Below the pieces are notes generated by a model. That model worked only from the letters and a program-made list of their open reading frames with translations, was not told the origin of the DNA and ran no database searches. 24,517 nucleotides of DNA from an uncultured Cytophagia bacterium. Lineage in GTDB: Bacteria; Zhuqueibacterota; Zhuqueibacteria; Oceanimicrobiales; Oceanimicrobiaceae. Shown here one piece after another: positions 16,936 to 18,675 of the stretch (its first letter is position 1; the number at the start of each line of letters is the position of its first letter). Position numbers and translations under genes: made by a program. The stretch is taken from the NCBI GenBank assembly GCA_964419085.1, contig CAYQOI010000001.1:1-24517 (forward strand), given 5' to 3'.

Positions 16936-18675
16936 ATGTCCGACTACACCATGGAAACCGACAAAGAGCTGGAAGCCGTTCTGGGTTCGCACAAGACGCG
17001 CATCCGGATTGTGGGGACCGGCGGTGGTGGCAACAACACCGTCACACGACTCCTGGAGTCCGGCACCAAAGAGGTGGAGGTTATCGCGGTCAACACCGAT
17101 GCCCAGGATTTACTTTTCGCCAAAGCACACCAGAAACTCCTCATCGGCAAGAATATCACAAACGGGTTAGGCGCGGGAAGCGACCCGAAGAAAGGGGAGG
17201 AGTCCGCGAAAGAGAGTTTGCCGGAGCTGGAAAAAGCCCTGGCCGGCAGTGACATGGTATTCATCACCTGCGGTCTGGGCGGTGGGACGGGCACGGGCTC
17301 CGCGCCGATCATCGCAGAGACCGCGAAGAAGTGTGGCGCGTTGACCATCGCGATCGTAACCCTGCCGTTCAGCGATGAGGGGGTGGTTCGCTGGGACAAC
17401 GCGCACAAGGGCCTGGAACAGTTGCAGAAGAATGTGGACACCGTGATCGTGGTTCAAAACGACCGGCTTCTGGACCTGGTGCCGGATATGCCGTTGAGCG
17501 CTGCGTTCAAAGTTGCGGACGAAATTCTGGTGAACGCGGTGAAGGGTATCACCGAGCTGGTGACGGAGAAAGGGCTGGTGAACCTGGACTTCGCAGATGT
17601 CAAGACCATCATGGAAAACGGTGGTCTGGCGATGATCGGACTCGGGGAAAGCGAGTCGGAAAAGAACGCGGAGGAGGCGGCGGAAAAGGCCTTGCAAAAC
17701 CCGCTTCTGGACGTGGAGATCACCGGTGCGAGAAGTGCGCTGATCAACATCTCCGGTGGTCCCGATCTCTCGCTCAAGTCCGCCAAAACGATCATGAAGT
17801 TGGTTGCGGAGCGCCTGGACCCGTCCGCGCGGATCATCTGGGGAACGCGACTCGACGAGTCTCTGGGTTCGGCGATCCGGGTGATGCTCATCGTCACCTG
17901 CCTGAAGTCGCACAGACGGTCTGCTTCGGAGGTGGATATCGCGATCAAGAAAACGGCCGCGGATCAGCAGGGAGCCTCGCCGCAAAAGCCCGCCAAGCCG
18001 GCAACCGCGCCCCCTTCTGCGGATGGTTCTAAGAAGAAAGGCCAAAAGACTCAGAAGAACGGTAGTCAGGTGTTCTCTGAGATCTTTATGGAGGAGTCCG
18101 AAGCAGACCTGGTGATGCTGGAGGAGGCGATCAAAAATCTGAGTCCAGGCAACCAGCCTCACAACGAGAAATATCTTCGCAAGATGAAGACGGCTTCCAC
18201 ATCGCTCTACAACTCTTCGGAGCTGTTCGCATATTCGAGGTTGGCGGAGTTTACCGATTTGGTGGTGCAACTTACCGAGGGGGCCATTAAGCAGCAGTTT
18301 GATCTTTCCGAAAACTTGATCGAGCTGTTTCGGGAGATTCCTGCCGCTCTGAACGGGATGATCGTCGACGACAAAAAAGCGTACGAGACCGCGGACGAAT
18401 TGAAGCAGAAGTTTCACAACGTCCTTGACCTGGTGAACAACCCCGCGGGATCCGGAAACGGAGACGCGCCTGCCCAAGCACCTCGCGCAGAGGTGCTGTC
18501 CCCGCTCGACGAGGGTGCCACGCATTCCCCCGCTGCGTTGGGTTCCGAAGTCTCCGGCGCGGCAGGCGACACCGCTGTTGCGCCACAGACAAAGCCGGAG
18601 AGCGCTGTCCCGGAAGATGGGGAAGAAGGCGCCGAGCCCCAGAAAAAGGTTCGGTATTTTGACAAGTTGTTTTGA
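16936..18675 (+). CDS. ftsZ: FtsZ-family GTPase resembling archaeal FtsZ1, fused to a C-terminal His-less Hpt-like domain
   Basis: Tubulin signature [17 protein letters not shown], GLGAG and T7 loop NLDFADV in residues ~20-325. Residues ~378-500 are Hpt-like, and the protein has low-complexity linkers. Confidence 0.9.
   Translation: [579 protein letters not shown]

Follow-up and report, generated by a model that had tools for sequence, protein, structure and literature searches.

A second, archaeal FtsZ1-type FtsZ with a pseudo-Hpt tail in bacteria of the KSB1 phylum

How does a bacterium come to carry, among ordinary bacterial genes, a second ftsZ that looks archaeal, and what kind of protein has it become there? 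The question is raised by the 24,517-nucleotide stretch of DNA that was analyzed here (hereafter the window, all coordinates being window positions), which comes from an uncultured hot-spring bacterium of the KSB1 phylum. FtsZ is usually treated as a vertically inherited core gene, and the most recent family-wide survey detected no notable transfer of ftsZ between archaea and bacteria (PMC9871819). The host phylum, since renamed Zhuqueibacterota, belongs to the FCB group and is partly known from hot springs (PMC11683472); the assembly that contains the window is a metagenome-assembled genome of 570 contigs that is 89% complete. We conclude that the window gene is almost certainly a real second FtsZ of archaeal type. 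Below, we refer to its product as the tailed FtsZ and to the latter and its homologues in the phylum as the family. The gene, its core and a diagnostic motif of the core are located as follows.

16936..18675, + strand: second ftsZ, complete gene (579 amino acids plus stop; open reading frame list and translation)
16936..17910, + strand: FtsZ GTPase core, amino acids 1-325, archaeal FtsZ1 type
16957..16983, + strand: N-terminal helix motif TDKELEAVL, amino acids 8-16

The FtsZ core and its archaeal relatives

The window protein scores 419.6 bits against TIGR00065, the NCBI equivalog model of FtsZ (cut-off 295.2), matches the Pfam domains Tubulin (PF00091) at residues 23-182 and FtsZ_C (PF12327) at residues 230-323, and has more than 100 full-length homologues in the database search, the named ones being assigned to 'candidate division KSB1 bacterium'. 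In an alignment of 22 sequences that includes the family and its archaeal relatives, the G-box GGGTGTG (G113-G121) is without variation, and so are N216, D218 and D221 of the T7 synergy loop NLDFAD; from these conserved motifs, the tailed FtsZ is predicted to polymerize and to hydrolyze GTP. The original prediction, made from the DNA sequence, had already described the GTP-binding and T7 loops as intact, and the alignment bears this out. All the motif strings quoted in it are found in the translation of 16936-17910, and those attributed to FtsZ1 of M. jannaschii are right as judged by the HMMER alignment to PDB entries 1W58/1FSZ; the agreement with this protein is far beyond chance. The span of 16936-17910 given at that time holds for the core (residues 1-325) but not for the gene, given that the reading frame extends to 18675 and the 254 further residues are conserved. 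The flanks had been called bacterial, and Pfam concurs, with a sigma-54 activator, a TonB-dependent receptor, rpsT, guaB and fusA. Two changes at otherwise conserved positions of the core are specific to the family: at residue 174 (17455-17457), the Pro of the I-P-N-D motif, which is kept in FtsZ1 and in bacterial FtsZ, is changed to Gln in 58% of the family, and at residue 58 (17107-17109), the His that is common to FtsZ1 and FtsZ2 is changed to Asp in 85%.

A canonical FtsZ is also encoded in the same assembly: its gene immediately follows ftsA on contig C449, and its product has the FtsA-binding end peptide DYDVPAYLRRRMD. The three hallmarks of a canonical bacterial FtsZ, namely placement in the bacterial clade, a dcw/ftsA neighborhood and a D[IV]PxFLR peptide, are all present in the C449 copy and all absent from the tailed FtsZ, and no ftsA or mur genes were found with Pfam in the window neighborhood of the latter. 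Against the window core, this canonical FtsZ of the same organism reaches 268 bits, compared to about 416 bits for the best archaeal proteins.

The two top matches of the core among solved structures are both archaeal FtsZ1: residues 8-326 align with residues 25-343 of the M. jannaschii FtsZ1 chain at 397 bits (1W58/1FSZ, HMMER), and the score with 9V7V, which is an Odinarchaeota FtsZ1 (PMC12583498), is 354 bits, compared to 295 bits or less for all bacterial FtsZ structures. Controls run against the same two structures gave 415 and 346 bits, respectively, for Methanoregula FtsZ1, and 326 and 252 bits for Methanoculleus FtsZ2; the scores of the window protein are near those of the FtsZ1 control and unlike those of the FtsZ2 control, that is, the protein behaves as an FtsZ1. 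Outside the family, the nearest named representatives of clusters at 50% identity come from Thermoplasmatota, Lokiarchaeota/Promethearchaeota, Methanobrevibacter and Freyarchaeota. A scan of species-representative genomes with the core alignment, which listed no family members and was used as a named reference set only, has archaeal proteins with 55-61% identity as the best among the matches listed, the first bacterial one being at 48%. Tandem FtsZ-FtsZ proteins of 744-826 amino acids (P0124, P0131) were observed in Altiarchaeales, including Candidatus Altiarchaeum hamiconexum, on many contigs; two tandem FtsZ domains are also present in a Closterium protein of 840 amino acids (P0122), and in Closterium such entries may result from gene models that were joined.

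Individual characters point in the same direction as the scores. The N-terminal motif, generalized as D-[DEK]-E-L-x-x-[ILV]-L, is shared by the FtsZ1 proteins of Euryarchaeota and DPANN archaea and by every family member shown, and is missing from FtsZ2 and from bacterial FtsZ. The family is archaeal in 10 of the 13 alignment columns that separate Archaea from Bacteria, has none of the 11 FtsZ2-derived states, is FtsZ1-like in both FtsZ1-derived columns (C112 and V215; 60% threshold, larger alignment), and shares the archaeal indel state, without the one-residue bacterial insertion.

For phylogenetic analysis, trees were constructed with IQ-TREE under the LG+C20 model with posterior mean site frequencies (PMSF) from about 330 columns, in samplings of 104 and 97 rows; in the latter, divergent family copies and more archaeal FtsZ1 were added after the first approximately unbiased (AU) test. 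In the 104-row tree, a bacterial clade with 100/100 support, which includes the canonical FtsZ of the same organism, excludes the family, and the family (100/100) lies within the FtsZ1 clade, beside DPANN sequences (93/89). In the 97-row tree, FtsZ1 together with the family is split from FtsZ2 together with Bacteria at 97/86; the family (99/96) is the sister group of a small clade that contains a cluster named after Freyarchaeota/Sigynarchaeota (97/90), with DPANN FtsZ1 next (92/84). The core thus does not branch inside canonical bacterial FtsZ, the placement that would have overturned the original prediction. FtsZl, CetZ and TubZ were considered as alternative homes for the protein and rejected, given that it passes the FtsZ equivalog cut-off and is placed in the tree inside FtsZ proper.

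Among the named homologues and the surveyed genomes of the phylum, the family occurs in a single bacterial phylum, which also keeps its canonical FtsZ. Among 167 species genomes of the phylum, counted by hand with a best E-value of 1e-95 or lower taken to denote an archaeal-type copy, such a copy is present in about 97, representing 17 of the 26 families, and nearly all of these genomes have a canonical copy (about 280-295 bits) as well. Only the canonical copy is found in four families, f4, f7 (archaeal-type copy in 0 of 19 genomes), f8 (0 of 8) and f9 (0 of 14). Identity to the window protein broadly tracks taxonomy, from 75-83% within its taxonomic family through 55-70% within its class to 45-66% in other classes, a pattern compatible with acquisition by an early ancestor of the phylum, mainly vertical descent thereafter and several losses. 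Across the phylum, core identity between the same pairs of genomes is 49-69% for the archaeal-type copy and 66-76% for canonical FtsZ, indicating that the former is subject to purifying selection and is constrained, yet evolves somewhat faster than the canonical copy.

From this evidence, we assign the family with good confidence to the archaeal side, within the FtsZ1 total group, and consider a transfer from archaea to bacteria likely; nesting of the family in FtsZ1, with a donor close to Asgard (Freyarchaeota-type) or DPANN archaea, is the favored reading only. Several observations weigh against this account of the ancestry. The FtsZ1-derived columns number just two, and the signal is thin at either threshold, with a single such column at 70%, in which the family has the ancestral state; about 330 columns hold limited phylogenetic signal in any case. 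Placement of the family on the inter-domain stem is not rejected in the first sampling (log-likelihood difference 9.2, AU p 0.27) and is marginally rejected in the second one (13.3 log-likelihood units, AU p 0.031), the groups for the latter test having been named after a tree had been seen. Monophyly of FtsZ1 without the family is not rejected either (AU p 0.075, nested versus sister), the nearest sister rows in the 97-row tree are long-branched, and three loci from another class (L102-L104) group with the class of the window, a partial mismatch between the tree of the paralogues and the class assignments.

These observations bear most directly on the possibility, raised in the original prediction as an unrecognised deep FtsZ clade, that the family branched off the inter-domain stem or before the FtsZ1/FtsZ2 duplication and survived only in KSB1, with no transfer involved. 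The AU test on the first sampling, the short FtsZ1 stem with only two fixed derived residues and the lack of significance for nesting within FtsZ1 all leave room for such a lineage. The better sampling, however, yields the split of FtsZ1 and the family from the rest and disfavors the stem topology, the family carries the FtsZ1-only N-terminal motif along with both FtsZ1-derived residues, and a deep lineage would have to have been lost everywhere else in Bacteria, with the canonical FtsZ kept alongside it. We therefore hold a deep lineage to be quite unlikely, although its rejection is marginal; inter-domain transfer, the other option in the original prediction, is the better one in view of the tree split, the N-terminal motif, the FtsZ1-type columns, the archaeal indel state and the occurrence in one phylum that retains a canonical FtsZ. 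Hardly any credence can be given to a more trivial explanation, namely that a chimeric contig or archaeal contamination put an archaeal ftsZ among bacterial genes. The assembly is indeed fragmented, and hot-spring communities contain archaea, but the in-frame fusion to the tail is seen only in this bacterial family, the GC content is even across the region, and the genes follow in the same order, including guaB and rpsT on the downstream side, on an NCBI contig of 339 kb, on a JGI contig of 1.27 Mb and in more than 20 genomes. Furthermore, Logan contigs from a hot-spring metagenome (2018) and from the microbial-mat metagenome of a different study (2024) span the junctions between the neighboring gene for partner X (see below) and ftsZ (both runs), between the core and the tail, between ftsZ and the gene for partner Y, and between the latter and guaB; run X1 is possibly the window's own sample, such that only run X2 counts as independent.

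The tail and its pseudo-Hpt module

The tail of the tailed FtsZ consists of four parts.

17911..18060, + strand: linker 1, variable and of low complexity, amino acids 326-375 (unalignable and variable in length among homologues)
18061..18465, + strand: CheA-P1-like pseudo-Hpt helical bundle, amino acids 376-510 (profile, AlphaFold2, Foldseek)
18466..18627, + strand: linker 2, variable and acidic, amino acids 511-564 (tail alignment)
18628..18672, + strand: C-terminal peptide with the family consensus FSNVxEAVKYFDKLF, conserved in all 19 tails aligned

This plan, in which a variable linker, a helical domain of about 120 residues, an acidic variable linker and an end peptide follow one another, is fixed in 19 homologues, and the helical domain is alignable across all classes of the phylum. 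A profile of this domain matches the P1 domains of CheA in the PDB (2LD6, E 1.6e-11; 1TQG, 2.4e-11; 8C5V, 2.6e-11; 1I5N, 1.5e-10) and, with an E-value of 5.8e-24, the BRIC1 entry 6FF6. The AlphaFold2 model of the domain has a mean predicted local distance difference test score (pLDDT) of 91 and a predicted TM-score (pTM) of 0.82, and the best Foldseek matches of this model are 2LP4 (query TM-score, TMq, 0.76) and 1I5N (TMq 0.76; target TM-score, TMt, 0.79), with a root mean square deviation of 2.2-2.3 Å; P1 domains crystallized with CheY6 (3KYI, 3KYJ) are among the matches as well. In the alignment with 6FF6, the phospho-acceptor column is opposite the His of the AAHSIKG motif, which we take to be His48 of CheA. 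In working Hpt domains, this His belongs to helix 2, within H-x-[IL]-K-G. The window protein has Thr in this column, and all 27 aligned tails contain Ser, Thr or Lys. The loss of the phospho-acceptor His makes phosphotransfer impossible, and hence the domain is a pseudo-Hpt (pseudo-histidine phosphotransfer) domain. The end peptide resembles neither the GI[DE]F[VIL] end of archaeal FtsZ1 nor the bacterial D[IV]PxFLR, and is presumed to be a docking peptide.

The cassette and its regulation

The tailed FtsZ is encoded in a cassette of genes on the same strand, preceded by a block of signaling genes and followed by guaB.

6381-7328, + strand (same strand as the cassette): REC-GGDEF protein
7338-8819, + strand (same strand as the cassette): HAMP-PAS histidine kinase
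8837-10741, + strand (same strand as the cassette): REC-PAS-PAS hybrid kinase
10748..12118, + strand: NtrC-type sigma-54 enhancer-binding response regulator, REC-AAA+-HTH (Pfam)
12346..12361, + strand: sigma-54 promoter ahead of the cassette, -24 GG / -12 GC, TGGTATGGGTTTTGCT
12400..13071, + strand: response regulator, REC plus PATAN/DUF4388 (Pfam)
13090..13920, + strand: orphan ParA/MinD-superfamily ATPase (Pfam AAA_31, CbiA, ParA, MipZ)
13933..14343, + strand: single-domain CheY-like receiver (Pfam), in the subclade of the window only
14377..15075, + strand: lytic transglycosylase with an SLT domain (Pfam SLT, 4.6e-16) and a hydrophobic N-terminus, kept in the expanded cassette
15076..16881, + strand: partner X, acidic scaffold with three helical bundles (hhalign, AlphaFold2, Foldseek)
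18685..19281, + strand: partner Y, probable P1-like N-terminal bundle and acidic tail (hhalign), downstream of ftsZ, position conserved

The cassette appears in two forms. The expanded form, in the class of the window, includes the ParA-type ATPase, the lytic transglycosylase, X and Y, and a minimal form in the other classes is limited to the genes for the bacterial enhancer-binding protein (bEBP), for a small REC protein and for the tailed FtsZ, without X or Y; the receiver and the sigma-54 activator are thus the constant companions of the tailed FtsZ. In each class that was examined, the activator gene adjoins the cassette, and the REC domain of the REC-PATAN protein is the one neighbor of the tailed FtsZ that is kept phylum-wide, its orthologues being encoded directly upstream of ftsZ in the minimal cassettes. 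The strict sigma-54 motif TGGTATGGGTTTTGCT is matched once in the window, where chance would yield 0.04 matches, and it recurs shortly before the first gene of the cassette in at least eight related loci from several classes (L003, L005/L006, L090, L093, L101, L103 and L104). A sigma-54 promoter combined with a dedicated activator implies conditional expression, and the kinase block at 6381-10741 likely comprises the sensors that feed the activator and the receivers of the cassette.

In the orthologues of the cassette REC domain, D11, D12, D56 and K106 are invariant, that is, all catalytic residues are kept. W18 in helix alpha-1 of this domain, within the signature VDDEEDLTWSISR, is likewise invariant across the phylum and may determine specificity for docking to pseudo-Hpt modules. 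The additional CheY-like receiver is present in L003 and absent from L005/L006 and L090. The ParA-type ATPase is conserved in the expanded cassette and missing from the minimal ones; it falls below every NCBIfam equivalog cut-off and is not assigned to a family.

The two partners apparently extend the repertoire of P1-like modules in the cassette. The C-terminal bundle of X is homologous to the tail domain of the FtsZ (hhalign probability of 95% with a single sequence, and of 97%, E 3.9e-11, with an alignment), with the His changed to Asn. In the AlphaFold2 model, X forms three separate bundles with disordered acidic linkers between them, of which at least the last one is P1-like, and its Foldseek matches include the P1 domain of CheA3 (3KYI/3KYJ, TMt 0.80-0.82). 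The N-terminal domain of Y, compared to the tail profile, reaches an hhalign probability of 57% (E 1e-4) with an alignment and is negative (1.6%) with a single sequence, and it is probably the same P1-like module. A similarity lead (0.85) to FimL was followed for X and Y and was not confirmed: the Pfam families FimL_2nd and FimL_C have no match at E 0.1 or better in 9 orthologues of X and 8 of Y.

The acidic tail of Y contains an FDI(K/S)E motif in which F168 and I170 are invariant (PQFDISEFES at 19180-19200 in the window). In the classes with minimal cassettes, the end peptide of the FtsZ is absent and a conserved SIFDIKESI is found in linker 1 instead; more generally, where Y is lacking (L091-L101), (S)IFDIKE(S)I is located in linker 1 of the FtsZ, and where Y is present, FDI(K/S)E is located in the acidic tail of Y. 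The motif seems to have changed places, from the filament protein to a separate partner or the reverse. In a long-tail subclade, the FtsZ proteins are considerably larger (709 amino acids in L087, 889 in L088, and open frames of 717-908 amino acids in G148-G166); L087 and L088 lie near genes for Tex, a cytochrome, a TPR protein and a glycosyltransferase, with no ParA-SLT-X-Y cassette and no obvious REC neighbor. The G+C content of the window is 0.47-0.50 at 5500-7000 and at 20900-22000, compared to about 0.55-0.62 elsewhere, the second of these stretches covering rpsT and the intergenic region before fusA.

Proposed function and comparison with known systems

Taken as a whole, the evidence leads us to lean towards the explanation that a transferred FtsZ1 core was rebuilt into a signal-controlled accessory cytoskeletal protein. 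An early member of the phylum would have acquired an FtsZ1 gene from an archaeon, the nearest sampled candidates being Asgard archaea of the Freyarchaeota type and DPANN, after which the gene would have been inherited vertically, with several losses. The short archaeal C-terminus would have been replaced by a linker and an Hpt domain derived from CheA P1 that lost its phospho-acceptor His, and the class of the window would have gained the new end peptide (KYFDKLF). Fusion to a pseudo-Hpt domain, gain of a new end peptide and placement in a sigma-54 operon also lend support to the neofunctionalisation that had been predicted to follow the transfer.

As for the mode of action, the histidine kinases encoded next to the cassette would sense a signal and activate the NtrC-type enhancer-binding protein, which would fire the sigma-54 promoter and thereby lead to production of the cassette. 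The FtsZ core would polymerize with GTP, and the co-transcribed, catalytically intact receiver, once phosphorylated, could dock on the pseudo-Hpt module in the tail of the FtsZ, as well as those of X and Y where these are present, and so control where or whether filaments assemble. In the class of the window, the orphan ParA-type ATPase might position the structure, and the lytic transglycosylase might remodel the wall at that site. The outcome would be an accessory cytoskeleton that is formed conditionally, in addition to the usual divisome of FtsA and FtsZ. The analysis shows the gene, its domains, an ancestry on the archaeal FtsZ1 side, the lost His, the operon, the promoter motif and the distribution; we infer polymerization, receiver docking and the cellular role, and offer the receiver-controlled accessory filament as a tentative proposal.

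Some observations run counter to this proposal. Pfam Hpt stays under its cut-off (24.6) on every copy tested, with divergent copies at 22-23 bits, and has no match at E 0.01 or better in the window protein. A membrane anchor was not identified for the tailed FtsZ. SepF was not found in the 89% complete genome, which is consistent with an FtsZ1 origin, given that archaeal FtsZ1 is reported not to use SepF and OdinFtsZ1 to bind membrane via its N-terminus (PMC12583498). A complex prediction for the tail domain and REC gave 0.00, a value that is neither support for nor evidence against an interaction. Finally, in G141, a 97% complete genome from the class of the window, only the archaeal-type FtsZ was found (G141:C93:25026-26036), with no canonical copy at E 1e-5; of its congeners, G139 has both copies and G140 only the canonical one. 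The single copy in G141 may reflect an assembly gap; if real, it would mean that the archaeal-type copy could support division alone, contrary to an accessory role.

This genome is one of the points in favor of an ordinary divisome paralogue, which would co-assemble with canonical FtsZ at the division ring in each cycle and in which the tail would be an adaptor-binding linker. Plastid FtsZ1 and FtsZ2 co-assemble at the division ring in this manner. The polymerization and GTPase motifs of the core are intact, the lytic transglycosylase of the cassette fits septal wall work, and archaeal FtsZ1 and FtsZ2 cooperate in one ring, as indicated in a preprint (bioRxiv 10.1101/2020.06.04.133736). We nevertheless find this role unlikely: the tailed FtsZ is absent from about 40% of the genomes of the phylum, including whole families that have the canonical gene, and is therefore dispensable for division; it is encoded outside the dcw/ftsA context, lacks the FtsA-binding D[IV]PxFLR, and has its gene behind a sigma-54 promoter with a dedicated activator. 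A different objection concerns receiver docking itself. The bundles could simply join the FtsZ tail, X and Y to one another, by bundling or in a condensate-like manner, with REC acting elsewhere, and this arrangement would account for the same module in three consecutive proteins, for the loss of the phospho-acceptor His in all three, and for the long acidic linkers, which are typical of multivalent scaffolds; the complex prediction, uninformative as it is, gave no interface. We judge this alternative to be fairly unlikely, given that the minimal cassettes lack X and Y, yet always have the REC gene directly upstream of the tailed FtsZ, and that REC keeps all its catalytic residues and the invariant Trp in helix alpha-1. 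In structures of P1 with CheY, the helix alpha-1 surface of CheY contacts the helices of the Hpt/P1 domain, and the closest folds to the tail domain include P1 domains crystallized with CheY (2LP4, 3KYI/3KYJ). There is also a precedent: FimL of Pseudomonas is built of His-less Hpt-like domains, and plant AHP6 is a pseudo-HPt. The polar localization of PilG, a CheY-like protein, depends on FimV and on the hub protein FimL (PMC12632253), such that handling of a receiver by a His-less Hpt-type scaffold would not be unique to the cassette.

Returning to the signal-controlled accessory protein, full-text literature searches found no published description of an FtsZ-Hpt fusion or of an archaeal-type FtsZ in KSB1, and the papers on the phylum found in this way do not mention an archaeal-type FtsZ. 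If a bacterial phylum has retained an archaeal FtsZ1-type gene next to its native ftsZ throughout its history, this would be a clear case of inter-domain ftsZ transfer and would offer a natural experiment, in which two divergent FtsZ polymers share a cytoplasm and yet do not interfere with each other. It would also supply a bacterial outgroup-in-context for the question of the role of archaeal FtsZ1 and its SepF-free anchoring. With a His-less CheA P1 domain fused to it, and with a sigma-54 activator and an intact receiver encoded alongside, the FtsZ may represent a cytoskeletal polymer that is regulated in a new manner. In its boldest and rather doubtful version, this scenario would have a whole phylum running a second, signal-switched cytoskeleton of archaeal origin, in which dead phosphotransfer domains serve as landing pads for receivers. 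A phosphorylated receiver, rather than FtsA, ZipA or SepF, might then set the place and time of filament formation; just as speculatively, one class might have recruited a ParA positioning ATPase, a wall-cutting enzyme and scaffolds with multiple pseudo-Hpt modules. If true, the system would be the first in which two-component signaling is wired directly onto a polymer of the tubulin family.

Among known systems, canonical bacterial FtsZ shares with the tailed FtsZ the superfamily, the domain pair, the catalytic motifs and the layout of core, disordered linker and terminal peptide, whereas the tailed FtsZ lacks the one-residue bacterial insertion and the D[IV]PxFLR peptide, is not encoded beside ftsA, and belongs to a family that is left outside the fully supported bacterial clade. 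Archaeal FtsZ1 (MJ0370; 9V7V) agrees with it in core sequence, the N-terminal helix of the D-E-E-L type, C112/V215, indel state and tree position. The differences are that the tailed FtsZ is hosted by bacteria, beside a canonical FtsZ and in a sigma-54 operon, unlike the ribosomal or secE-nusG type context of archaeal ftsZ1 (PMC9871819), and that it has, instead of the short GI[DE]F[VIL] end, a tail of 254 amino acids that includes the pseudo-Hpt domain and ends in a new peptide. FtsZl-1/FtsZl-2 (Makarova and Koonin 2010, PMC2875224), CetZ, TubZ and the magnetosome FtsZm are similar in being extra proteins of the tubulin superfamily that are encoded outside the dcw cluster, often together with accessory genes. 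These proteins are divergent families or duplicates of the bacterial type, whereas the tailed FtsZ passes the FtsZ equivalog cut-off and groups with archaeal FtsZ1.

The tail domain has in common with CheA P1/Hpt domains (1I5N, 2LD6, 1TQG; complexes with CheY, 2LP4 and 3KYI) the five-helix bundle of the P1 type and the profile similarity, and differs from them in that it lacks the His, is fused to a cytoskeletal GTPase rather than to a kinase, and scores below the Pfam Hpt cut-off. The similarity to FimL and AHP6 is a works-like analogy, in that these are His-less Hpt-type bundles that still engage receivers, and X, like such a hub, is an acidic scaffold of multiple bundles; X, Y and their orthologues nevertheless match no Pfam family of FimL and thus are not members of that family. 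As regards the rest of the expanded cassette, the closest parallels are the orphan ParA positioning systems PomXYZ of Myxococcus and MipZ of Caulobacter, which likewise combine an orphan ATPase of the ParA/MinD type with large acidic or coiled partners and FtsZ. The cassette ATPase differs from those in that it accompanies a separate, archaeal-type FtsZ, belongs to no family above cut-off, and is missing from the minimal cassettes.

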